From Bacteroidota bacterium (lineage in GTDB: Bacteria; Bacteroidota; Bacteroidia; 2-12-FULL-35-15), in NCBI GenBank assembly GCA_025963715.1, contig JAOQAG010000048.1, forward strand, positions 5,553 to 69,552: DNA of 64,000 nucleotides, read 5' to 3'. The position numbers were made by a program, and so were the translations under genes. The notes below the pieces were generated by a model. The model ran no database searches and was not told the DNA's origin. It worked only from the letters and a program-made list of their open reading frames with translations. How positions within the stretch are numbered: position 1 is the stretch's first letter; each line of letters begins with the position of its first letter. Positions 4,066 through 61,894 of the stretch are shown here, one piece after another.

Positions 4066-4183
4066 CCACAGATTCACAGATGAAAAAAACAATAAAAGAA
4101 TTTTCACAGATCATTTCAAATCGCTTTGCGATTTATGCATCTGTGAAATTTTAATCCAAATAAAAAATCTGTGAATCTGTGGC
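4066..4183. repeat. MITE-like element (~118 bp) with 16-bp terminal inverted repeats 'ccacagattcacagat'
   Basis: Left end 'gccacagattcacaga', right end 'tctgtgaatctgtggc'. The interior is the reverse complement of the second copy at 14101-14216. Confidence 0.8.
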
Positions 4184-11871: not shown

Positions 11872-12187
11872 TTTAAAGTTCAAGGTTTGAAAGTTTAAAG
11901 TTTGCTGTGTGGCTCCTGCGGAGCGGTTTTTACCACTAAGGCACTTAGGGCACTGAGAAAAAAAAAGAGAAAAAGAGATTTTGATGTGTGGATCGCTTAC
12001 GCGATTATTTTTTACCACGAAGCCGCAAAGAAAAATTGAAGCGTGTTTTTGTTTTTTTAATGTTTGGTCACAAACTGATACACATAATTCACACACAGAT
12101 TCGTTATTCGTTTAATTCGCTATTCGTTGTACACAGATTGGTATATTAGTATAAATTAGTATTTAGCAGATTCATAGAGTAGATTAT

Positions 12188-13865: not shown

Positions 13866-14100
13866 GGTACGGATAACGCCCGCCTGAACGATTCGGGCAG
13901 GAACAGGAACGAAAAACGAATCTGAGGATCTACTAAATACCAATTATTACTAATATACCAATCTGTGTATTTGCTGTGTACAAATGTTTCTTTGGATCGT
14001 TACCATCTTACGAAGCTGTCATTCCGGGCCTGACCCGGGATCTCATAAATGTTTGCAGCGTTAATTCTTCGGCCTGTCTTGCTGATGCTACTGATCTTTG

Positions 14101-14216
14101 CCACAGATTCACAGATTTTTTATTTGGATTAAAATTTCACAGATGCATAAATCGCAAAGCGATTTGGAAGTATCCGCGTGAATTTTTGATTTCCTTTTTA
14201 ATCTGTGAATCTGTGG
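14101..14216. repeat. Second copy of the MITE-like 'ccacagattcacagat' TIR element (inverted orientation)
   Basis: 'ccacagattcacagat' at 14101 and 'atctgtgaatctgtgg' at 14201-14216. The interior matches the reverse complement of 4082-4167. Confidence 0.8.
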
Positions 14217-14333
14217 CTTCATTTTCTAACGATGCGTTGTCCTTCGGTATTCGTTGTAACTTCCTTCCGGAAATTTTTCCACAGCTTGATTTATCAATCA
14301 ATTTAAAGCGCCATTTGTGTGTATATTTGCACA

Positions 14334-16979
14334 ATGAGTCGCACCACCCTTTTTGTTGATGTAATTTTACCTTTAGCGGTTCCGAATTTATATACCTATC
14401 GCGTTCCATTCGACTGGAACGAGTCGGTAATTGTCGGGCAGCGCGTGATCGTACAATTCGGAAAAGGAAAATTATATTCGGCGCTGGTGCGCAGAGTTCA
14501 TGAACAACCTCCCAAAATTTACGAAGCAAAATACATTGATTCCATTTTGGATGAGTATCCGATTGTGAACGAAACACAATTTGCGTTATGGGAATGGATC
14601 AGCCAGTATTATATGTGTACGATCGGTGAAGTGATGCAGGCGGCATTACCCGGCGGATTGCGGCTGGCAAGCGAAACAAAGATCATTCTTAATCCCTCGT
14701 TTAATAATCAATCGGAAACGGAGCGCCCGCAGATCTTGATTTCCGATAAGGAATATTTGATCATGGATGCGCTGGAGATCCGGCAGGTATTAAGCATCAG
14801 CGATGTGTCGGAAATCCTTGATCAGAAAACAGTATATCCTGTGATCAAAAACATGATCGAAAAAGGAATTGTACTGATCCAGGAAGAGCTGAAAGAAAAA
14901 TACAAACCGAAGATCGAAAGCTTCGTCCGCTTTACGGAGCATGCAGAGCAGGAGGAAAATTTAAAAACCATTTTTGATTCGCTGGAAAAAAAAGCATCCA
15001 AACAGCTGGATGTGGTAATGGCGTTTATCAAACTTTCCGGCAGGTATTCCAAACAGATCAACGAAGTAAAAAAATCGGAGATTGTAAAATTGGTGGAAGG
15101 CGCCGATGCAGCAATAAAAGGATTGGCTAAAAAAAATATTTTTGAAATATACGAACGTGAAGTGGGGCGATTTGCTGCATACACCGGCGAATCAAGGGAT
15201 ACGCATCTGAATGAAATTCAGCAGCAGGTTTTTGATTCGATTAATGCGCAGTTTTTTACCGGACAAAAAGAGCAAGCTGCTAAGGATGTTGTTTTATTAC
15301 ACGGTGTTACATCATCCGGTAAAACCGAAATTTACATCAAGCTGATCGAGCAGGCCATTGCGCAGGGAAAACAAGTGTTGTACCTGTTGCCGGAAATTGC
15401 GCTGACAACACAGATCATCAATCGCCTGCGAAAATATTTTGGCGATGTGGTGGGTGTGTATCATAGTAAGTTTAATGAAAATGAAAGAGTAGAAGTATGG
15501 AACAATGTATTAAAAAGTTCCAATGCGGAAGTTCCAATGCGGAAGTTGGATGAGCTAAATGCAGAAAAAAAAGTTCAAAGTTCAAAGTTCAAAGTTGACG
15601 AACTAAACGCAGAAAAAAATACAGGATCAAACACAGAAACTTTAAAGGTTGAACTTTCCAACTTTAAACTTGTTGTTGGTGCGCGTTCCGCATTGTTTTT
15701 GCCATTCAGTAATTTAGGATTGGTGATCGTGGATGAGGAACATGATTCGTCGTACAAACAATACGATCCGGCGCCGCGCTACAATGCCCGTGATGGCGCA
15801 ATTTACCTGGCGCATCTGCACAAAGCAAAAACATTATTGGGATCGGCAACGCCCAGCATCGAAAGTTATTTTAATGCGCTGGAAGGCAAATACGGTTTTG
15901 CCGAAATGACCAAGCGTTTTGGTGGAATCCAGATGCCGGAGATCTTAATTTCAGATGTAAAAGAAGCGACGAAAAGGAAACAGATGAAATCGCATTTTTC
16001 GCCGATGCTGCTCGATCATGTGACTGCTGCGCTGGAAAATAAAGAGCAGGTGATTTTATTTCAAAACCGCAGAGGATTTGCACCGCAGCTGGAATGCAAT
16101 ACCTGCGCATGGGTGCCGCAATGTGTGAATTGCGATGTGAGCTTAACGTATCACAAAGCAAGCAATCAGCTGCGTTGTCATTATTGCGGATATACTTCCA
16201 AACCACCTGTAAAATGTGCCGCCTGCGGCGATACAGAATTAAAAATGAAAGGTTTTGGTACGGAAAAAATAGAAGAAGAATTGTCGATCTTTTATCCTAA
16301 AGCAAAAATTATGCGGATGGATCTGGATACCACGCGCAGTAAATTTGCGCACCAGCATATCATCCAGGATTTTGAAGATGGTAACATCGATATTTTGGTG
16401 GGAACGCAAATGGTAACCAAAGGATTGGATTTTGATAACGTGAGTTTGGTCGGAATTTTAAATGCGGACGGGATGCTTAATTTTCCTGACTTCCGTGCAT
16501 ACGAGCGCAGTTACCAGCTGATGGCGCAGGTATCGGGCAGGGCAGGGCGAAAAAATAAACGGGGGAAAGTAATTATCCAAACACAAAATCCGGATCACAG
16601 CATTATTCAGGATGTGTGGAACAATAATTATTTATCCATGTATACCAATGAATTGCTCGACAGGCGGAATTTTAATTATCCGCCTTATTTCCGGATCATT
16701 GAGATCACGCTGATCCATCGCGATGTGAACATGGTGAATGAATCGGCAAAATATTTTGCCAATGAATTAAAACATCATTTCGGTAAACGTGTGCTGGGCC
16801 CCGAATTTCCTATTGTTGCACGCGTTCGTAATTTATACCATAAAAATATTTTATTGAAGATCGAGCGGGATGCTTCTGCCTTGCAGGCGAAAAAAATTGT
16901 AGCAGACCTGCTGGTAAAATTCAAAGTGAATCCGGATTTTAAATCGGTAAGAGTGCAAATGGATGTGGATCCAATGTAG
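14334..16979 (+). CDS. priA: Primosomal protein N' (PriA helicase) carrying an in-frame ~50-aa repeat-derived insertion
   Basis: Walker A 'GVTSSGKTE', 'DEEH' box, Cys-rich zinc-binding region 'CNTCAWVPQCVNCDVSLTYH...CHYCGY...CAACG'. The ORF opens with GTG at 14319, and the likely ATG is at 14334. Confidence 0.9.
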   Translation: MSRTTLFVDVILPLAVPNLYTYRVPFDWNESVIVGQRVIVQFGKGKLYSALVRRVHEQPPKIYEAKYIDSILDEYPIVNETQFALWEWISQYYMCTIGEVMQAALPGGLRLASETKIILNPSFNNQSETERPQILISDKEYLIMDALEIRQVLSISDVSEILDQKTVYPVIKNMIEKGIVLIQEELKEKYKPKIESFVRFTEHAEQEENLKTIFDSLEKKASKQLDVVMAFIKLSGRYSKQINEVKKSEIVKLVEGADAAIKGLAKKNIFEIYEREVGRFAAYTGESRDTHLNEIQQQVFDSINAQFFTGQKEQAAKDVVLLHGVTSSGKTEIYIKLIEQAIAQGKQVLYLLPEIALTTQIINRLRKYFGDVVGVYHSKFNENERVEVWNNVLKSSNAEVPMRKLDELNAEKKVQSSKFKVDELNAEKNTGSNTETLKVELSNFKLVVGARSALFLPFSNLGLVIVDEEHDSSYKQYDPAPRYNARDGAIYLAHLHKAKTLLGSATPSIESYFNALEGKYGFAEMTKRFGGIQMPEILISDVKEATKRKQMKSHFSPMLLDHVTAALENKEQVILFQNRRGFAPQLECNTCAWVPQCVNCDVSLTYHKASNQLRCHYCGYTSKPPVKCAACGDTELKMKGFGTEKIEEELSIFYPKAKIMRMDLDTTRSKFAHQHIIQDFEDGNIDILVGTQMVTKGLDFDNVSLVGILNADGMLNFPDFRAYERSYQLMAQVSGRAGRKNKRGKVIIQTQNPDHSIIQDVWNNNYLSMYTNELLDRRNFNYPPYFRIIEITLIHRDVNMVNESAKYFANELKHHFGKRVLGPEFPIVARVRNLYHKNILLKIERDASALQAKKIVADLLVKFKVNPDFKSVRVQMDVDPM
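15514..15672 (+). repeat. Repeat-derived in-frame insertion within priA (direct repeats 'gaagttccaatgcg' x2, 'gagctaaatgcagaaaaaaa' x2, 'aaagttcaaagttcaaagttcaaagtt')
   Basis: Sequence composition matches the intergenic 'aaagttcaaagtt' repeat family. It translates to 'SSNAEVPMRKLDELNAEKKVQSSKFKVDELNAEK...' between conserved helicase blocks. Confidence 0.7.
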
Positions 16980-17082: not shown

Positions 17083-17180
17083 TTGTCATCCCGGACCTGA
17101 CCCGGGATCCGTCAATTAAAAACTAAAATCATCATCCTGCAAGCATTCATGAGATCCCGGGTCAGGCCCGGGATGACAGT
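17083..17180. repeat. Inverted-repeat hairpin element 'ctgtcatcccgg(a/g)cctgacccgggatc...gatcccgggtcaggcccgggatgacag'
   Basis: Two ~30-bp arms are reverse complements of each other around a ~40-bp spacer. A second full copy lies at 27388-27486, and half-copies at 14016-14057 and 30183-30226. Confidence 0.8.
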
Positions 17181-22870: not shown

Positions 22871-22934
22871 GTAGGCGCCAGGCTCTGCCTAGTGACACTC
22901 TAAATTTTGTCACTAGGCAGAGCCTAGCGCCTAC
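22871..22934. repeat. ~62-bp palindromic element 'gtaggcgc(c/t)aggctctgcctagtgaca...tgtcactaggcagagcctagcgcctac'
   Basis: Near-perfect long hairpin. Other copies at 1668-1728 and 33423-33485. Confidence 0.85.
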
Positions 22935-27387: not shown

Positions 27388-27486
27388 CTGTCATCCCAGG
27401 CTTGACCCGCCGGGATCTGTTAATTAAGAACTATTAATAAAACTCTGCAAACATTTATGAGATCCCGGGTCAAGCCCGGGATGACA
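27388..27486. repeat. Second full copy of the 'ctgtcatccc...gggatgacag' inverted-repeat element
   Basis: Arms 'ctgtcatcccaggcttgacccgccgggatc' and 'gatcccgggtcaagcccgggatgaca'. Confidence 0.8.
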
Positions 27487-28954: not shown

Positions 28955-29256
28955 ATCTACTAAATACTAATTAATACTAATATACCAATCTGTGTACAAC
29001 GAATAGCGAATTAAACGAATAACGAATCTGTGTGTGAATTATGTGTATCAGTTTGTGACCAAACATTAAAAAAACAAAAATCTATTTTACCTTCTTCGCG
29101 CCTTCGCGCCTTCGTGGTAAAAAATAATCGCGTAAGCGATATACACAGCAAAAACTCTTTTTTCTTCTTTCCTTCTCAGTGCCTTAGTGGTAAAAACCGC
29201 TCCGAAGGAGCACACACAGCAAACTTTGAACTTTAAACTTTAAACTTTGAACTTAT

Positions 29257-30051: not shown

Positions 30052-30251
30052 ATCTACTAAATACTAATTTTTACTAATGTACTAATCTGTGGGTACGGAT
30101 AACGAACAGGAACGAAATTACGAATCCGGGTGTTTACTGTGTGTGTAGGTGTTATGTTTTTCAATACTAATTTTTTTAAGAACTGTCATTCCGGGCTTGA
30201 CCCGGGATCTCATAAATGTTTGCAGGATCCGGTCTCAGCAAACATCCAACT

Positions 30252-31028
30252 CTAATCCACCTTTTTCAACTGATAAAGCATTTCGCCCAATTTCAGGTCA
30301 ATGCATACTTTATCGGTTGTATCAAAGTCCGTGCATGTTGTTTTATAAAGGATCAAACTATCATTTATAAACTTAAAACCCATTTTCAGCACGAATTGTT
30401 TATCGTTTAAAAAATCAATTGTGTTAAAATGGGGAACGCCTTCATAATCTGAGTAATCAATTTTCGGTTTGTAAGAATTTAACATCGGGAAACCAATCAA
30501 ATCACCGTTTTCTTTAAACTCCACCGTTTTATTTCCCATCATGTATTTTCCTTTGAACAGGAATTTTTCTAAGATTTTATAATCGTTTTGCTGATCCTGT
30601 TTTCCTGCAAAAATAAAAATGTTTGTATCGATCTTTATTTTGTTCGTGTCCGGCATTTCAATTTTTAAATTTTGTGAATAACCGGTCGCACTTTTTGTCG
30701 CACTTTTTAAATAATAATCGTTTGCATTTTTTGTAAGGACCAATCCTTCAGCACCGTCATAAAAACCATAAACAAACCAGGTTGTATCTCCTGTTTTTTC
30801 AGGAATGTAAATACAACTCCGGTCGGCAATAAATTGTGCATCTATCGGCGAACGGTCTTTACTGATCGCATCCACATATTTTTTATTTACCCAAAGTCCC
30901 GGAAGTAAAATGCCTCCGGTTGTGTTTACAATACTGTCTTTTGCCGCTATTTGTTGCCCGCCGTTATTTGGCGCGCTGCAAGAGCAGATCAGTAATGTAC
31001 CCAAAAATGCAAACGAAAATAATCTCAT
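30252..31028 (-). CDS. Hypothetical lipoprotein
   Basis: 'LLICSCSAP' lipobox. Confidence 0.5.
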   Translation of the reverse strand: MRLFSFAFLGTLLICSCSAPNNGGQQIAAKDSIVNTTGGILLPGLWVNKKYVDAISKDRSPIDAQFIADRSCIYIPEKTGDTTWFVYGFYDGAEGLVLTKNANDYYLKSATKSATGYSQNLKIEMPDTNKIKIDTNIFIFAGKQDQQNDYKILEKFLFKGKYMMGNKTVEFKENGDLIGFPMLNSYKPKIDYSDYEGVPHFNTIDFLNDKQFVLKMGFKFINDSLILYKTTCTDFDTTDKVCIDLKLGEMLYQLKKVD

Positions 31029-32972: not shown

Positions 32973-33422
32973 AAGAGAATTGTTTGGTTAGTGTAAGATC
33001 TGCTTTAAAAACGCCACAGGGCGCAATTAATCGCAATCGAGTGCACAAAGATACTGCGAATTTTAACGGCGCGGCAGAAAGCAGGGCGTGATAATATTCA
33101 CAACATATTAACTAAAAATAGTTCAAAGTTTAAAGTTCAAAAGTTTAATTTTGCTGTGCGGATAACGCCCGCCTGAACGATTCGGGCAGGAACAGGAACG
33201 AATATTACGAATCTGTGGATCTACTAAATACCAATTTGTACTAATATACTAATCTGTGTGGTATGGATAACGAACAGGAACAAAACTTCGAATCTGTGGA
33301 TCTACTAAATACCAATTTGTACTAATATACTAATCTGTGTGTTATACAGATAGCGAACAGAAATGAATATTACGAATCCGTGTGATACTGTGTGTGATTA
33401 ATTTAAAATTTGTTGTGTACAT

Positions 33423-33485
33423 GTAGTTGCCAGGCTCTGCCTGGTGACAAATATCGAATGTCACCAGGCAGAGCCTGGCGCCTGC
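33423..33485. repeat. Third copy of the ~62-bp palindromic element
   Basis: 'gttgccaggctctgcctggtgacaaatatcgaatgtcaccaggcagagcctggcgcctgc'. Confidence 0.8.
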
Positions 33486-36597: not shown

Positions 36598-36987
36598 TTA
36601 AGAATGTCTGTAGTTATTCCTGGCTGTTGCAATTGATTTTGCTACTATTTTTAAAATTTCTTCACTTTCTTGTTTTAATTGCGTCAGTTGTTCTGCTTTG
36701 TAATCCAGATCTTCTATTACTTCAAGCCAGAATACTGTTTCATCTGCTTCTTCATTAACAATTCCAAGCTTTGCTATGAAATCGGCTTTTGATTTTCCCC
36801 TACAAGCTGCTCTGTAATTCGCTGCCGTGGAAGTTGCTGATTTTATAAGCTGATGTTTAATCACCAGCATTTCCTCATTTGATTTTATAGTTTTTAAATA
36901 CTTTATAATTGATACCGCTTGTTTTTTTGTTCTGGCTTTAAATGCATCAGCAAAAGCTGTATTTATTTTATTTTCCTCTATCTCCAC
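36598..36987 (-). CDS. Four-helix-bundle protein (TIGR02436 / '23S rRNA intervening-sequence protein' family)
   Basis: 'KSATSTAANYRAACRGKSKADFIAKLGIVNEEADETVFWLEV', the hallmark of this family. Confidence 0.75.
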   Translation of the reverse strand: MEIEENKINTAFADAFKARTKKQAVSIIKYLKTIKSNEEMLVIKHQLIKSATSTAANYRAACRGKSKADFIAKLGIVNEEADETVFWLEVIEDLDYKAEQLTQLKQESEEILKIVAKSIATARNNYRHS

Positions 36988-39671: not shown

Positions 39672-40130
39672 ATAATTGATTGTTTCAATTTTTTGAAAGC
39701 ACTTTTCTCTAAGGAAAGTGCTTTTTCTTTTTAAAGAAGTTCAAAGTTTAAAGTTCAAAAGTTTAATTTTGCTGTACGGATAACGCCCGCCTGAACGATT
39801 CGGGCAGGAACAGGAACGAATATTACGAATCTGTATATCTACTATACTAATATTTACCAATATACTAATCGGTGTGTATTATCCGCTTTGCGTTTTTCTT
39901 TGCGCCTTCTTTGCGTTTTTGGCGTTTAGCTTTTTCTGCGTTTAGCGAACTTTGAACTTTAAACTTTTGAACTTTAAACTTATTTAGCTATTAACAATCT
40001 TTAGTTCGTAAAAACCGCTTTTCCAGCTTCGGCTTTTACCATTTTAACTCTTACTTCGTAAAGCCGGTTTGGCAACTTTGATCCCGATAGCTATCGGGAT
40101 TAAACTTTTGAACTTTAAACTAAAGAAAAG

Positions 40131-41459: not shown

Positions 41460-42014
41460 ATGAAAAAAATAAACATCCTTTTGATCCTTGCCGCAACATC
41501 TGTGCTGGCGTTTGGATTTATTGCTAAAAATAACACCATTCAGTCGGGTGCCGTTGAAGGAACAAATGTGGGAAACATTGCTCCGGAGTTAAAATTCAAA
41601 AATCCACAGGACAAAGAGATCGCACTTTCTTCGCTGAGAGGAAAAATTGTGCTGGTAGATTTTTGGGCATCCTGGTGCGGTCCATGCCGCAGGGAAAATC
41701 CAAATGTGGTAATTGCTTACAACAAATACAAAGACACGAAATTTAATAAAAAAGCAAAAGGATTTACCATCTATAGTGTTTCCCTGGATAATGCAAAAGA
41801 TCCATGGGTGAATGCCATTGCAAAGGACGGTTTGGTTTGGGAAAACCACGTATGTGATTTTGGCGGATGGCAATCAATGGCAGGTGCAAAATACGGCATC
41901 AACTCCATTCCTGCCGGATTTTTACTGGACGAGAACGGTGTGATCGTGGCAAAAGGTGATGATTTACGTAACGGTGGGCTGGAAACACAGCTTGAAAAAC
42001 TGATCAAAAAATAA
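41460..42014 (+). CDS. TlpA-like thiol-disulfide oxidoreductase (thioredoxin fold)
   Basis: Signal peptide plus 'FWASWCGPCR'. Confidence 0.8.
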   Translation: MKKINILLILAATSVLAFGFIAKNNTIQSGAVEGTNVGNIAPELKFKNPQDKEIALSSLRGKIVLVDFWASWCGPCRRENPNVVIAYNKYKDTKFNKKAKGFTIYSVSLDNAKDPWVNAIAKDGLVWENHVCDFGGWQSMAGAKYGINSIPAGFLLDENGVIVAKGDDLRNGGLETQLEKLIKK

Positions 42015-45581: not shown

Positions 45582-45612
45582 TGCATTTTACAAAGAAAAA
45601 GAAATATAACGC

Positions 45613-45690
45613 AGAGCGTCATTGCGAGCGGTAGCGAAGCAATCTCATTCCAGTAAATAGCTGGAATTACTTCGTTCTTAGCAATGACGT
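45613..45690. repeat. Imperfect inverted-repeat element 'cgtcattgcgagcg...gaagcaatctca' (related copy at 53759-53856)
   Basis: Shares 'gtcattgcgag' and 'gaagcaatctca' arms with the 53759-53856 palindrome. Confidence 0.6.
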
Positions 45691-46237: not shown

Positions 46238-47188
46238 ATGCAACACATTTTATCTGCAAAAAATATTGTTAAACGGTATGCCTCGCATACTGCTTTGGAC
46301 GATGTAACTCTTGAAATTCCAACACAAAGCATTTATGGATTGCTTGGTCCGAACGGTGCCGGAAAAACGTCACTCATCCGGATCATCAACCAGATCACCG
46401 GTCCCGACAGTGGAACTGTTTTATTTGAAGGCCAGCCGCTTTCGCCGAAACACATTGAGAACATCGGTTATCTGCCGGAAGAACGCGGTTTGTATAAAAA
46501 AATGGAGGTAGGCGAACAGGCTTTGTACCTGGCGCAATTGAAGGGAATGAAAAAAGCGGAAGCGAAACAGAAATTAAAATACTGGTTCGAAAAATTCGAC
46601 ATGGGTGCATGGTGGAATAAAAAAGTGGAAGAACTGTCGAAAGGAATGCAGCAAAAAGTACAGTTTATTGTAACGGTGCTGCATGAACCAAAATTACTGA
46701 TCCTGGATGAACCGTTCAGCGGTTTCGATCCGATCAATGCCAATTTGATCCGTAATGAGATCTTACATTTGAAGGAACAAGGCTCTACTATTTTATTTTC
46801 CACACACAACATGGGATCGGTAGAAGAGCTGTGCGATTACATTGCATTGATCAACAAATCAAAAAAGATTTTGGATGGATCGGTAAAAGAGATCCGCAAA
46901 CAAAATAAATCGAACACGCTGGAAATTGAATTTACAGGCAATATGATGGGTTTTACCAATTCGTTATGGACATTCGGAAAATTGGGCGAGCACAAAGTGG
47001 AAGGCGAGCTATGCAAAGCGCAGGTGGCGCTTACGCCGGGAAGCACCTCCAATCAATTGATTGAATCGGTTTTAAAAGCAGTGGAAATTCATTCGTTCCG
47101 CGAACTGATCCCGAGCATGAATGATATTTTTATTTCAAAAGTAAATGCGGAAAATCCACTGGGAACGCAGAGTAATTTTACGGAGTAA
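46238..47188 (+). CDS. ABC transporter ATP-binding protein (with ~90-aa C-terminal extension)
   Basis: 'GLLGPNGAGKTS', 'LSKGMQQKV', 'LILDEPFSG'. Confidence 0.9.
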   Translation: MQHILSAKNIVKRYASHTALDDVTLEIPTQSIYGLLGPNGAGKTSLIRIINQITGPDSGTVLFEGQPLSPKHIENIGYLPEERGLYKKMEVGEQALYLAQLKGMKKAEAKQKLKYWFEKFDMGAWWNKKVEELSKGMQQKVQFIVTVLHEPKLLILDEPFSGFDPINANLIRNEILHLKEQGSTILFSTHNMGSVEELCDYIALINKSKKILDGSVKEIRKQNKSNTLEIEFTGNMMGFTNSLWTFGKLGEHKVEGELCKAQVALTPGSTSNQLIESVLKAVEIHSFRELIPSMNDIFISKVNAENPLGTQSNFTE

Positions 47189-47189
47189 T

Positions 47190-47531
47190 AAAATAGTTCA
47201 AAGTTTAAAGTTCAAAAGTTTAATCCCGATAGCTATCGGGATTGCTGGGTGGCTCCTTCGGAGCGTTTTTTACCACTAAGGCACTGAGAAAATACTAAGA
47301 AGGAAAAGAAGAAAAAGAGCTTTGCTGTACGTGTTCCTTCGGAACGTTTTTTACCACGAAGGCGCTAAGACGCGAAGGAAAGCAAAAAGATAATAAGTTT
47401 TTAACAGGCTTTGGTCACAAACTAAAAAAGCATAGTTCACACACAGATTGGTATATTAGTACTAATTAGTATTTAGTAGATCAGATCACACAGATTAGTA
47501 TATTGGTATAAATTAGTATTTAGTAGATATT
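47190..47531. repeat. Composite repeat mosaic separating the ABC ATPase and permease genes
   Basis: In order it contains 'aaagttcaaagtttaaagttcaaaagtttaa', the palindrome 'atcccgatagctatcgggat', two 'ggagcgttttttaccac.aaggc' units, the 'ggtcacaaactaaaaaagcatagttcacacacagattgg' module, and three 'cagattagtatattggtataaattagtatttagtaga' units. Confidence 0.8.
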
Positions 47532-48872
47532 ATGAATAAGATCCTTCTCATCATCAAGCGCGAGTACCTTTCGAGGGTAAAGAAAAAATCGTTCATCATC
47601 ATGACCATTTTGGGTCCTGTATTAATGGCGGGCATCATGGTTGTTCCGATCTGGCTGTCGATGCAGAAAGCAGAAAAGCAAAAAGTGGAAGTGATCGACG
47701 ATAGTGGATTGTTCAAAGGACTGATCCCGGAAAAAGACGGCATTGTTCATTTTGATTATCCGCCGATTACACTGGACCAGGCCACAAAAGGTTTTTACGA
47801 TACGGACTATGATGCGATCCTGTGGATGCCAAAAAATATTATAGAAGGCGGACAGGCGATCAAAATATTTTATAAAAAGCAGCTGGGAATTAACACCGAA
47901 GAGTACATGGGAACGGAGATCAGCCAGATGTTGAAAAATACGATCCTTGCATTCAATAAAGTAAACATCAATGTGATCAAAGATGCGGAAGAACATTCCA
48001 AGCTCAAAGTGATCACAGAAAAATTGGAAACATCCGGCAAAAGTGAAAAAACGAATACAGGATTATTCATGGGAATTGGCCTCGGAGCAGGCGTTTTGAT
48101 CTACCTGTTTATTTTTCTTTACGGCGTGCAGGTAATGCGCGGCGTGATGGAAGAAAAAACAAACCGCATTGTGGAAGTAATTCTTTCCTCCGTAAAACCT
48201 TTTCAGCTGATGATGGGAAAAATTGTAGGTGTGGCATTGGTGGGCTTAACGCAATTTGTATTGTGGATCATCCTTACCACCACATTGTACAGCATTGCAG
48301 CCGTTACGGTTTTAAAAGATGTGGATATGAAACAGATCCAGCAAAAGGAGCAAACTTATACTACCGGCGCTGATCTGAGATATACGGAAATGAAAAAGAT
48401 CCAAAAGCCGAATGCTGTTACGGAAGTGCTCAATGATTTTAAATCGGTGGATGTAAAAGCAATTGTGCTGTGCTTTTTATTTTATTTCCTTGGCGGATAT
48501 TTAATGTACAGCGCGCTGTTTGCAGCGGTGGGCGCGGCGGTTGACAATGAAGCGGACACACAGCAATTTATGCTGCCGATCACGATCCCGCTTGTATTCT
48601 CGTTTTTTATTGCGCAGGCAATTATTCAAAATCCGGAAAGCCCAATGGCATTCTGGTTTTCCATCATTCCGTTTACATCACCGATCGTGATGATGGTGCG
48701 TTTGCCTTTTGGTGTTCCCGGCTGGCAGATAGCATTATCTATGGGTTTGCTGGTGCTTGGCTTTTTATTCACTACCTGGATCGCAGGGCGGATCTACCGC
48801 ACCGGAATTTTAATGTATGGTAAAAAAGTAACCTGGAAAGAACTGGGAAAATGGCTTTTTTATAAAGGATAA
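47532..48872 (+). CDS. ABC-2 family transporter permease
   Basis: N-terminal TM helix, a large extracytoplasmic loop, and 5 C-terminal TM helices, as in NatB/YhaP-type permeases. Confidence 0.8.
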   Translation: MNKILLIIKREYLSRVKKKSFIIMTILGPVLMAGIMVVPIWLSMQKAEKQKVEVIDDSGLFKGLIPEKDGIVHFDYPPITLDQATKGFYDTDYDAILWMPKNIIEGGQAIKIFYKKQLGINTEEYMGTEISQMLKNTILAFNKVNINVIKDAEEHSKLKVITEKLETSGKSEKTNTGLFMGIGLGAGVLIYLFIFLYGVQVMRGVMEEKTNRIVEVILSSVKPFQLMMGKIVGVALVGLTQFVLWIILTTTLYSIAAVTVLKDVDMKQIQQKEQTYTTGADLRYTEMKKIQKPNAVTEVLNDFKSVDVKAIVLCFLFYFLGGYLMYSALFAAVGAAVDNEADTQQFMLPITIPLVFSFFIAQAIIQNPESPMAFWFSIIPFTSPIVMMVRLPFGVPGWQIALSMGLLVLGFLFTTWIAGRIYRTGILMYGKKVTWKELGKWLFYKG

Positions 48873-50536: not shown

Positions 50537-51523
50537 ATGAAAAAAATAACAATCATATTAGGGCTTATCAGTGTAGTTACTGTCAAGTCGTATGCACAAA
50601 AATCCCTTGGCGGATCTTCTGATTCTCCGGTAACGGTAACGATGACGGATGAAAATACAAATCCCGATTATATTGAAGGACACATTCCTTTTTTAGAGCT
50701 GGATTTTGCGAAGTCGAATTCTACACTGTTTGCCGATTTCGGAGGTAAATTAAAGATCAAACGCTTTTATGCGGATCTTGATTTTCATGTGAGCTATGCA
50801 AACGGTTTGGATGAATTTTATTACACAGAGCCCATCATTACTGCTAATTCGGTGTATGCTTACAAAGCGTCGAAGGATTTCAGGGCGATGCTGGGTTTTG
50901 TACTGGTTCAAAAAGAAGTAGCAACAACGGTTAAGTTCCATTTAAAATCGGTTGGACAAACCTCGTATGTTACAAAGGTGCCGACTAAAAAAACATTTTT
51001 TGTAATGGCGGACCTGGGTTTCAGAAAAGGATTTACATGGGTATATGGCGGTGGAAAAGACCTTACGTTTACAAATGTGAATTCGCCGGAAGGCTTTACA
51101 CCACCGGATCCTACCGTTACCCGTACCATGATGGATTATACAATGCTACAGGTTGGCGTTTCTACAGGATCGCTTGGTTTTTACAAAGCAAACATCAGCG
51201 GATACGGCGATCGCAGAGCGGAACAATCGGTGCGTTATTATCTTGACATGTTGGTTTTATTGGGTTCAAAGATTGATGATGTGTATCAGAAAAACGATTT
51301 GGGCGGCAACCTGGACAATACGCTTTATACGCGTTACGGACTGAATGACAGCAAGCGCTCGAAAGTTGGTTTTTGCCTGGGCGCTCAGTTGGATAACATT
51401 AGCCGGTTTGGAATTGCAGGCGGAGTGGAAACAGGATATATCCCGGGAATAAAAGGAAATTTTGGAAGTAACTTCTGCTTCTCAATCAAAAGCTCTTTAT
51501 CCTTAGCGAAAATATTGAATTAG
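50537..51523 (+). CDS. Hypothetical outer-membrane protein
   Basis: Signal peptide 'VKSYAQ', beta-strand-rich. Confidence 0.45.
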   Translation: MKKITIILGLISVVTVKSYAQKSLGGSSDSPVTVTMTDENTNPDYIEGHIPFLELDFAKSNSTLFADFGGKLKIKRFYADLDFHVSYANGLDEFYYTEPIITANSVYAYKASKDFRAMLGFVLVQKEVATTVKFHLKSVGQTSYVTKVPTKKTFFVMADLGFRKGFTWVYGGGKDLTFTNVNSPEGFTPPDPTVTRTMMDYTMLQVGVSTGSLGFYKANISGYGDRRAEQSVRYYLDMLVLLGSKIDDVYQKNDLGGNLDNTLYTRYGLNDSKRSKVGFCLGAQLDNISRFGIAGGVETGYIPGIKGNFGSNFCFSIKSSLSLAKILN

Positions 51524-51631
51524 TAAATCATTATTGGCATAGGATTTTTAACATTATTGCATACAAATGACGATTTTTTTGTACATTTGTATTAGAATTT
51601 TGATTAGCAGAAATGCAGATCAACAAATTAA

Positions 51632-52233
51632 ATTGGCTTTACAACTTCGATAGCAATTGCAGCTTTCCTACTTGTTTAAGCCAATTTTTTATTTTGTCCC
51701 TGTCAACATATCCGATCTCATTTATTGAAAGTGCTATTTTCAATAAATCTTCTAATTGATTATGAGAACGGGTATGAATAGTTACAATTACGTTTGACTT
51801 TGTACGGCCAACCTGGGCATCAGTTCGGAACTATTACGGTTTCTCTTTTTGCATCTTTTATTTCAGTAAAAAGTACTTTTGAATTAGGTTGGGTAATACT
51901 TTCAATAATAATAACAGGATTTTGAACCGCAAAAGGCAAAGTCGTTAAATGTGCGCATTTTACCTCATGAGCAGCATCTTGTTTGTGCTTTATGTTACCG
52001 ATAGCTTTATTTACGACTACTTGTGTAAGGATAATAGGTAAATCAGGAATCCCGGCATCTAGTAATTTTTGAGAAGGCTTACCAATATAAAATATCTGCG
52101 ACCTGTTTGCAAATACAAATCCATTGGTTTCAAATTCTTTTAGTTCCCTGAGAAATTTATCTTCAATACTTTCAACAATTTCTATCTTTTTTTGATTTTC
52201 TGTTTTTCCTTTTTCAGGCTCCCGCTCTTCCAC
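51632..52233 (-). pseudogene. Hypothetical gene apparently split by a frameshift at about 51820
   Basis: The 137-aa ORF 51820-52233 ends at TGA. A 64-aa open frame 'AQVGRTKSNVIVTIHTRSHNQLEDLLKIALSINEIGYVDRDKIKNWLKQVGKLQLLSKL' continues directly downstream in the -1 frame. Confidence 0.4.
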
Positions 52234-53758: not shown

Positions 53759-53856
53759 ACGCGTCATTGCGAGGGCTTTTCGCCCGAAGCAATCTCACAC
53801 CAGCGTATAAAGCCAGAATGAGATTGCTTCGGGCGAAAAGCCCTCGCAATGACGTT
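53759..53856. repeat. Near-perfect 38-bp-arm palindrome 'acgcgtcattgcgagggcttttcgcccgaagcaatctca ... tgagattgcttcgggcgaaaagccctcgcaatgacgt'
   Basis: The arms are exact reverse complements with a ~22-nt loop, and each arm contains a nested 'gggcttttcgccc' hairpin. Confidence 0.85.
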
Positions 53857-57836: not shown

Positions 57837-57870
57837 TAATGTATCTGCTAAATACTAATTATTACTAATA

Positions 57871-58170
57871 TACTAATCTGTGTTGTCTACTAAATACGAA
57901 TTATTACTAATGTACCAATCTGTGTGTAACACACCCCTGGCCCCTCTCAAGAGGGGAATTGATCCTGCTATACTAATCTGTGTTGTCTACTAAATACGAA
58001 TTACTACTAATGTACCAATCTGTGTGTAACACACCCCTAGCCCCTCTCAAGAGGGGAATTGATCCTGCTATACTAATCTGTGTTGTCTACTAAATACGAA
58101 TTATTACTAATGTACCAATCTGTGTGTAACACACCCCTAGCCCCTCTCAAGAGGGGAATTGATCCTGCTA
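57871..58170. repeat. Tandem array: 3 copies of a 100-bp unit ('tactaatctgtgttgtctactaaatacgaatta.tactaatgtaccaatctgtgtgtaacacacccct.gcccctctcaagaggggaattgatcctgcta')
   Basis: Units start at 57871, 57971 and 58071 with 1-2 substitutions per copy. Each ends in the 'cccctctcaagagggg' hairpin. Confidence 0.9.
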
Positions 58171-58254
58171 ATGTTTAAATTTTAGTGCTTATTATAATTT
58201 CTTTTTTAACAAACACAGCAAACTTTGAACTTTAAACTTTTGAACTTTGAACTA

Positions 58255-61681: not shown

Positions 61682-61815
61682 ACACACCCCTGGCCCCTCT
61701 CAAGAGGGGAATGCATCCTGCACCAATTTATTATTAGATTATTATTTCTGATTTTCATTTAAAACTAAAATTCCAAAATTAGTAGTATCAAATTCCCCTC
61801 TTGAGAGGGGTTAGG
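61682..61815. repeat. Inverted pair of the 'acacacccctggcccctctcaagagggg' module flanking a 70-bp AT-rich spacer
   Basis: 61682-61713 and its reverse complement at 61784-61815. Confidence 0.8.
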
Positions 61816-61894
61816 GGTGTGTTCTTGTTTCTTTCTGTTACCAATCAATTTTAATAATCCGTCTACTAACAACCAACTACTAACAACTCCAAAC

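Follow-up and report, generated by a model that had tools for sequence, protein, structure and literature searches.

Described mosaic repeats and the ABC transporter spacer

Bacterial interspersed mosaic elements (BIMEs), known from Escherichia coli and related enterobacteria, are classically found in the ATP-binding cassette (ABC) transporter operons malEFG and hisJQMP. In operons they can serve as attenuators, and in Streptococcus pneumoniae the BOX elements (boxA-boxB(n)-boxC), which are transcribed together with the operons that they extend at the 5' or 3' end, have a suspected influence on adjacent genes (PMC3049150). Direct repeats of the heptamer TAACTGA, for which a role in translation has been proposed, occur in the Beggiatoaceae, the Cyanobacteria and five Bacteroidetes (MacGregor 2015, PMC4679880). 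Among the repetitive extragenic palindromes (REPs), GTAG and CGTC superfamilies are distinguished, and CGTC repeats have been reported in Bacteroidetes (PMC3733652). Here we describe a mosaic repeat, hereafter the composite, that fills the spacer between the ATPase and permease genes of an ABC transporter. The locus lies in a stretch of 64,000 nucleotides (64 kb; the window) from a metagenome-assembled genome of an uncultured Bacteroidota bacterium (proteins MCW30860xx). The spacer is probably a vertically inherited copy of an ordered, non-coding mosaic repeat element of about 300 bp, with the history proposed below, and the composite is one member of a large family of intergenic modules, which multiplied within this lineage. 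Its main interest lies in the apparently recent copying of the composite into tight gene pairs, in a structural divergence that is confined to modules and in a grammar of head plus word array.

From the stop codon of the ATPase gene to the ATG of the permease gene, the non-coding spacer measures 343 bp (47189-47531), and its whole length is made of repeat modules. The genes and modules of the locus are the following.

46238 to 47188, forward strand: ABC transporter ATPase of the DrrA/NatA type, 316 amino acids, upstream partner (Pfam ABC_tran and DrrA1-3_C)
47195 to 47223, forward strand: module A, heptamer array by the stop codon (AGTTCAA AGTTTAA AGTTCAAA AGTTTAA)
47224 to 47241, no strand: module B, perfect palindrome TCCCGATAGCTATCGGGA of 18 nt (20-22 nt including its flanks)
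47242 to 47322, forward strand: module C1, with the junction TTGCTGGGTG, a 5-bp hairpin (47252-47264), GTTTTTTACCAC, TAAGGCAC words and a purine-rich tail
47323 to 47385, forward strand: module C2, with the junction TGCTGTACGTG, a hairpin (47331-47347), GTTTTTTACCAC and GAAGGCGC/GACGCGAAGG words
47410 to 47440, forward strand: module D, conserved block TTTGGTCACAAACT...TAGTTCACA, ending in TTCACA
47441 to 47481, forward strand: module E1, CACAG head and ATTRGTA word array, 41 nt
47488 to 47528, forward strand: module E2, CACAG head and ATTRGTA array, 41 nt, stopping 3 nt short of the permease ATG
47532 to 48872, forward strand: ABC-2 permease, 446 amino acids, downstream partner (Pfam ABC2_membrane_3)

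Each C unit is built from a GCTGTGT-like junction, a 5-bp hairpin, the sequence GTTTTTTACCAC (T6ACCAC) and a run of 8-nt words. A tandem period of 7 was detected with TRF at 47195-47223 and at many further sites of the window. The E array is AU-rich and contains stop codons in all three frames. A previous reading of this DNA, made from the sequence only, had named five repeat modules in the spacer, each in several copies; all of them were confirmed by pattern counts far above chance. The same reading had counted three E units where two full units are present, and a second ggagcgttttttaccac ('ggagcg') where the letters are actually ggaacgttttttaccac ('ggaacg').

No Rfam family was detected on the whole window at gathering thresholds, nor on the spacer at E <= 1, and blastn gave no plasmid or phage relative of the spacer. 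The E pattern matched a single viral contig, by chance and within a coding sequence. It is very improbable that the spacer hides a small gene encoding a small RNA or a micro-peptide. The units of hairpin and U-tract could terminate a short transcript, and a few open reading frames (ORFs) of 20-44 codons are present. However, none of these ORFs is worth considering; they cross module borders that are polymorphic for insertions and deletions (indels) in the sister genome presented below, no Rfam match supports such a gene, and the fold of the whole spacer is not significant (z = -1.3).

One genome per species was scanned, which gave 80 loci encoding permease relatives. A same-strand ATPase homologue is located immediately 5' of the permease gene in 77 of the 80 loci, in agreement with the earlier statement that the two genes are normally adjacent. 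The genes are thus not unpaired and the spacer is not unique sequence: the pair is conserved and its spacer consists entirely of repeat modules. A length of 343 bp is unusual for such a conserved pair, because the gap in the related loci is mostly of 0-60 nt. In the closest outgroups (62-80% permease identity) the gaps range from 9 to 127 nt and none contains the composite; several close outgroups display short ATTCGTA-type word arrays just 5' of the permease ATG.

Comparison with described systems

Like BIMEs, the composite is an extragenic mosaic in which short conserved motifs follow each other in a defined order and which is dispersed in many copies. Both occupy transcribed sites (3' ends and gaps between operon genes) and are missing from divergent promoter regions. 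BIMEs are formed by REP palindromes that carry a GTAG tag and alternate in orientation, and they are associated with REP-associated tyrosine transposases (RAYTs), whereas the ABC spacer includes no tagged REP and one untagged palindrome. Its hairpins are tiny and all same-facing, and most of its length corresponds to arrays of 7-8-nt words.

BOX elements and the composite share an ordered modular structure with fixed terminal and variable internal modules. In the composite, A and E are terminal, the C units number one (in the sister genome) or two, and the E-type arrays one or two, with more of them at 57837-58254. BOX elements belong to an unrelated phylum, and the sequence of the composite, compared by reading only, has no known resemblance to boxA, boxB and boxC. 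They fold extensively, in contrast to the mostly unstructured composite, and they have neither heptamer word arrays nor a replacement of the spacer from stop to start codon, both of which are features of the composite.

The A and E arrays resemble the TAACTGA arrays in being tandem 7-nt words in sets of 2-6, mostly intergenic and forward. As in the TAACTGA arrays, the E arrays end a few nucleotides before the starts of genes without Shine-Dalgarno sequences and contain stops in all frames; the expansion is sporadic and lineage-specific in both systems, with occasional in-frame copies in ORFs. The units of the A and E arrays are AGTTYAA and ATTRGTA, and neither is TAACTGA. The composite differs by its words (AAGTTYA, ATTRGTA, ATTCGTA, GAAGGCGC and others), by the coexistence of several word families, by the CACAG or GCTGTGT heads and by the association of arrays with hairpin units in larger blocks that are copied together.

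In the mosaics of Neisseria (dRS3/CGTC REPs), as in the window, small repeats of several families are interleaved within long stretches of intergenic DNA (PMC3733652). The ABC spacer is distinguished from them by the absence of tagged REPs, module B being untagged, and a gene-oriented ordered scaffold is not described for Neisseria. A literature search with the module sequences recovered only irrelevant primer matches. From these comparisons, the composite is a variant of the known mosaic intergenic repeats (BIME, BOX and TAACTGA types) and not a new kind of system.

An ordered composite in three copies

In the window, the AAGTTYA pattern of module A has 26 matches for 0.06 expected, the pattern of module E (CACAGATTRGTAYATTRGTA...) has 15 matches for 0 expected, and the pattern of module C (hairpin, GTTTTTTACCAC and KAAGGCRC words) recovers 6 units in 3 loci, also for 0 expected. 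The palindrome of module B is found at 4 sites and module D (TTTGGTCACAAACT...TTCACACACAG) at 3 loci. Counted as arrays, 12 are of A type and 15 of E type. DNA with a second copy within the 64 kb represents 31% of the intergenic DNA vs 0.2% of the coding DNA; this coverage falls to 0% in the divergent (promoter-only) spacers, a small sample of 4. The majority of the modules consist of word arrays; the word families, of 7-8 nt, are AAGTTYA, ATTRGTA, ATTCGTT, GAAGGCGC, CTTTGCG, AAGAATC and TTGGATG, and the word arrays are bounded by CACAG or GCTGTGT. The density of the motif CTGTGT in intergenic DNA is 7.7 times that in coding DNA; for CACAGATT the ratio is about 140. Intergenic CACAG sites are followed by 30 nt whose periodicity at lag 7-8 exceeds that of the 30 nt before them.

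Two other spacers of the window align with the ABC spacer along their whole length.

11872 to 12187, forward strand: second copy of the composite, in the spacer between an RlmL-like methyltransferase gene (rlmL) and pfk (collinear alignment)
28955 to 29256, reverse strand: third copy of the composite, in the spacer between thyA and folA (collinear alignment)

The three copies (47189-47531, 11872-12187 and the reverse complement of 28955-29256) have a mean column identity of 80%. Each exactly fills the interval between the stop codon of one gene and the ATG of the next. All face the same way with respect to transcription, and the order common to the three is A, C1, C2, D, word array, E. Module D is invariant in the three copies, and module B is an extra insertion of the ABC copy that the other two lack. 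The spacers 33110-33420, 39730-40125 and 13866-14318 are built differently, from A, F and then inverted E.

The sequence-only reading had proposed that the same modules recur in other orders and orientations. This holds for 33110-33420 and 39730-40125 but not for 11872-12187 and 28955-29256, where order and orientation are those of the ABC spacer. Its broader proposal of a combinatorial assembly has to be divided in the same way. Combinatorial change is real, in the form of module-level indels, swaps and inversion upon an ordered scaffold, and modularity is real across the window. However, the ABC spacer is not the product of free assembly but a copy of the ordered composite A-(B)-C1-C2-D-E, and its module order is inherited: the three window copies and the orthologous spacer of the sister genome agree in order and in gene-relative orientation.

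Conservation of the composite in a sister genome

A syntenic contig of 59.6 kb (GCA_900291705.1, OLLL01000070.1; the sister) was recovered by a metagenome scan with the E pattern and subsequent look-ups of cluster mates. The proteins of the two genomes are mostly 88-99% identical. Their lineages are nevertheless well separated, with saturated synonymous sites, because the identity at four-fold degenerate sites is only 62%. The ABC locus of the sister displays the same gene order and a collinear version of the composite of 242 bp. Between the two spacers, the identity of modules A, C2, D and E2 is 85-91% (C2 88%, D 86%, E2 91%), far higher than the 62% of the four-fold sites. Modules B and C1 together form one indel of 96 nt, flanked by TTGCTG(T/G)GTG direct repeats; B is missing at both comparable orthologous sites of the sister and from its 59.6 kb of syntenic DNA. 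The E1 slot is occupied in the sister by a different array, (GAACCAAT)n, of which no other copy was found in the sequences examined, and which looks locally generated rather than derived from a dispersed family.

From the presence of the 242-bp composite in the sister, it follows that the element entered the junction before the two lineages split. The splitting of the ABC gene pair is old, and the permease has remained intact since then. The permease ORF is intact in both genomes, which suggests that the spacer has long been compatible with permease expression. The permease shows only 69% amino-acid identity with its sister counterpart (46% at four-fold sites), for 92-99% in the proteins of its neighbours, so the gene would be evolving much faster or would have been exchanged.

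An assembly artefact, in which repeats would have been misjoined or collapsed in the metagenome-assembled genome, is hardly credible. Short-read Logan contigs of the same sample (SRR13312996) do break at modules: the termini of L001 lie in modules K and A, one of them 22 nt into module A, and L100 breaks at the 61894 spacer. But the independently assembled sister has the same gene order and a collinear spacer, the stop codon and the start codon are both intact, and the three copies agree with one another. The modules explain why short reads of this lineage assemble into contigs that break at almost all long spacers.

Over the syntenic region, the two genomes agree within 2 nt in the length of 18 repeat-free spacers, and about 20 spacers with repeats differ by 60-320 nt, the window being mostly the longer. 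In the syntenic region, the numbers of module loci in the window and in the sister are respectively 15 and 7 for A, 4 and 0 for B, 4 and 1 for C, 3 and 0 for D, 13 and 3 for E, 5 and 0 for H, 6 and 0 for I, and 4 and 0 for J. This pair of genomes offers a natural experiment on the making of bacterial intergenic DNA, in which unique spacers are length-stable and modules account for almost all structural change, being gained, lost, swapped or inverted. At the 3' end of priA, the stop codon of the sister is directly followed by a terminator hairpin, and in the window this stop codon is separated from the same terminator by about 320 nt of modules; modules therefore sit in transcribed 3' regions.

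The segment 39738-39981, which comprises module F and a CTTTGCG array between an A array (39738) and its inverted copy (39951), is inverted in the sister (L094, 430-630). This inversion is consistent with a recombination between inverted word arrays.

Recent copies and mode of spread

The genes of thymidylate synthase and dihydrofolate reductase are a classically coupled pair. The thyA-folA gap is of 18 nt in the sister (TAA-ATCAGTTAAAATAAAAAA-ATG; L098, 9447-9464) vs a composite of 302 bp in the window; on this comparison it is a second tightly coupled pair split by a composite, and the split appears lineage-specific. In the rlmL-pfk spacer, the sister has only A and C2 (154 nt), and the window adds C1 and a D-ATTCGTT-E block. 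Recent copying is indicated by a D-E segment of 126 nt that is 98% identical between these two loci of the window (28955-29080 and 12046-12171), and the copy event is much younger than the species split. A composite of about 300 bp can enter tight coupled pairs (ABC ATPase-permease, thyA-folA) without destroying them, and it should therefore have some property compatible with, or supplying, the expression of the downstream gene.

At the newly filled thyA-folA and rlmL-pfk sites the native spacer has been replaced and no target-site duplication (TSD) is visible. The features of MITEs (miniature inverted-repeat transposable elements) are lacking: no inverted repeat links the ends of the spacer, and the comparison of filled and empty sites reveals no TSD. 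At the filled sites, one border lies either in the previously shared C2 or in an A-like microhomology (ATCAGTTAAAA vs ATAAGTTCAAAG). No transposase or RAYT domain was found in the 55 proteins of the window. A spread by template switching or gene conversion is favoured over a classical transposition with terminal inverted repeats (TIRs) and TSD, because the native spacer is replaced, TIRs and TSD are lacking and the borders fall in shared modules or microhomology.

Transcription across the spacer

Two terminator-like sites are present in sense orientation in the spacer, for 0.9 expected. The C hairpins have stems of 5 bp and energies of -4.9 to -9.7 kcal/mol, and their fold z-scores are not significant. 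The five genuine terminators of the window have energies of -14.7 to -17.3 kcal/mol. Co-transcription of the ATPase and permease genes across the spacer, at most attenuated, is likely, because the C hairpins are far weaker than the genome's own terminators. The only part of the spacer with a notable fold is module B (-12.8 kcal/mol, z = -4.3), which is followed by no U-tract.

The same evidence bears on another explanation, in which the composite would be a portable terminator-promoter cassette: the C units would end the ATPase transcript, D and E would provide a promoter and a leader, and the operon would be truly split. Such a cassette would account for the excess of terminator-like sites in sense, for the sense orientation of all six C units of the window with respect to their flanking genes, for the position of D as the most conserved unique block and for a permease that has long been functional behind a spacer of 240-340 nt. 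The weak stems of the C units speak against it, and so does the divergence of D/E from the -33/-7 consensus. As a -33/-7 promoter, module D matches only 3 of the 6 positions of the -7 box, which leaves the promoter idea unsupported and not disproved. The candidate -7 box of D/E is not conserved in the sister, and the consensus TTTG-N19-TAnnTTTG is unmatched window-wide, so the test is a weak one; with a gap of 18-20 nt, the Bacteroidetes promoter TTTG-N18-20-TAnnTTTG has 0 matches in the 64 kb for 1.95 expected. We consider the cassette unlikely. A perfect TAAATTTG box was observed elsewhere, within a AAATTTGT word array, 3 nt before the ATG at 41460.

Position of the word arrays relative to genes

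Translation initiation in Bacteroidota is not reliant on Shine-Dalgarno pairing. In 6 of 11 loci the A arrays are forward and start within 6 nt of the stop codon (rough binomial P ~6e-8), and in 5 of 10 loci the E arrays are forward and end within 16 nt of the start codon (rough binomial P ~5e-5). These P values are generous, as the copies are related by descent and an insert in a very short spacer necessarily touches the genes on both sides. In distant Bacteroidota (L005, L010, L016, L030) the same words are found near stops or starts and are 34-80 times rarer.

From these positions, E arrays could be marks of gene starts and A arrays marks of gene ends, and the spacer would then be a regulated leader and trailer rather than a tolerated selfish insert. 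The placement near starts and stops, the same kinds of position in the distant Bacteroidota, the ATTCGTA-type arrays just before the permease ATG in relatives and the TAACTGA precedent (PMC4679880) all point in this direction. On the other hand, about half of the A and E copies are in opposite orientation or far from gene ends, and one E slot holds an unrelated word array in the sister. The arrays are moreover dispensable, given their rarity in other Bacteroidota and their far lower number at the sister orthologues, and the binding protein is still only hypothetical. This interpretation is distinctly doubtful. If the start-proximal arrays were functional, they would extend the still-unexplained TAACTGA observation to a second and richer system.

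More speculatively, and with little probability, the CACAG- or GCTGTGT-headed arrays could be the products or substrates of a dedicated and undescribed mechanism of Bacteroidota, either an enzyme that writes or copies short-word arrays at the borders of genes or a factor that reads a gene-boundary code in place of signals of the Shine-Dalgarno type. Such a mechanism would explain the words at stops and starts in distant Bacteroidota, the replacement of spacers from stop codon to ATG and the in-frame array in PriA (see below).

Proposed history of the spacer

For the reading that we prefer, a vertically inherited copy of an ordered mosaic element, the scaffold would run from the stop codon through an AAGTTYA array, one or two units of hairpin and T6ACCAC with octamer words, the TTTGGTCACAAACT block and one or two CACAG-headed ATTRGTA arrays to the ATG. 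The composite entered the tight ATPase-permease junction before the split from the sister species. Later events concerned whole modules: palindrome B was inserted, a C unit was gained or lost between direct repeats of GCTGTGT, and one word array was replaced. Sibling copies appear to have been made recently at thyA-folA and rlmL-pfk, the spread presumably taking place by template switching or gene conversion at shared modules and microhomology. The spacer would be transcribed with both genes as a long intercistronic region, in which the units of weak hairpin and U-tract would do no more than attenuate read-through or buffer the 3' end of the upstream gene, and the E array at the ATG may act as an unstructured leader enabling independent initiation without a Shine-Dalgarno sequence.

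Several observations weigh against this history. Unique spacers are 83-96% conserved between the two genomes, so that the identity of 85-91% between modules shows only a constraint at least equal to that of ordinary intergenic DNA, and it could also result from concerted evolution. The direction of change at thyA-folA (insertion in the window or deletion in the sister) is one that we infer from the 98% identity of the copies, and none of the 80 loci of permease relatives provides an outgroup for it. The rule of orientation relative to genes is based on only 3-4 related copies, and the contact with stop and start codons, automatic for an insert in a tiny spacer, says little about function. A useful fraction of the transcripts could still end at the two hairpins, each with T6 behind it in sense orientation. 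Co-transcription, attenuation and the leader function are all deduced from the DNA letters.

Other repeats and accessory genes

Besides the modules of the composite, the window contains pairs of palindromes that belong to the described superfamilies of tagged REPs: a dimer with the GTAG tag (GTAGGCGC...) and hairpins with the CGTC/TGTC tag (CGTCATTGCGAG... and TGTCATTCCGGG...). The GTAG-tagged palindromes correspond to module G and the CGTC/TGTC-tagged ones to modules K and H; all are located outside the ABC spacer, at the following sites.

1668-1728, 22871-22934 and 33432-33483: tagged REP sites, first group
45605-45690 and 53760-53855: tagged REP sites, second group (the dimer at 45605-45690 is missing in the sister)
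14017-14058, 17084-17178, 27445-27486 and 30184-30225: tagged REP sites, third group

A MITE-like element, J, of about 120-130 bp with TIRs of 17 bp (GCCACAGATTCACAGATT), is present at 4066-4182 and 14101-14216 as inverted copies that are 88% alike. Both copies are missing from the orthologous spacers of the sister, and J is found elsewhere in the sister genome (L083, L092). At 57869-58170, between two sugar-nucleotide genes, a unit of 100 bp (E array and CCCCTCTCAAGAGGGG hairpin module) is repeated three times in tandem with 98% identity; its counterpart in the sister is a spacer of 197 nt without triplication.

Repeat words are also found within a coding sequence. In priA (14319-16979), the positions 15510-15672 form an in-frame insert of about 42 amino acids composed of (AAGTTCCAATGCGG) x2.4, AAAGTTC x4 and an inverted A-like array. 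The insert corresponds to residues 405-446 of the query, which are skipped in the alignment to solved PriA structures, and lies in the loop before the LVVGARSALF motif. It is probably shared with the sister, whose protein of 885 amino acids belongs to the same 90%-identity cluster. Rickettsia palindromic elements insert in frame in a similar manner.

Some differences with the sister concern genes rather than repeats. A gene annotated '23S rRNA intervening sequence protein' (36598-36987) is located between etfB and etfA, which in the sister are separated by 46 nt (L098, 3237-3282); the sister has such a gene at L099 5202-5462, where the window has I/B repeats (61688-61894), and these genes also appear to move between spacers. 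About 1.85 kb around 50537-52233 is missing in the sister contig and encodes an ORF of 328 amino acids without Pfam match and an ORF of 137 amino acids with a phage MuF C-terminal domain. Finally, an ORF of 258 amino acids without Pfam match (30252-31028) separates a Band-7 gene from thyA; the sister lacks this ORF and has 147 nt between the two genes.

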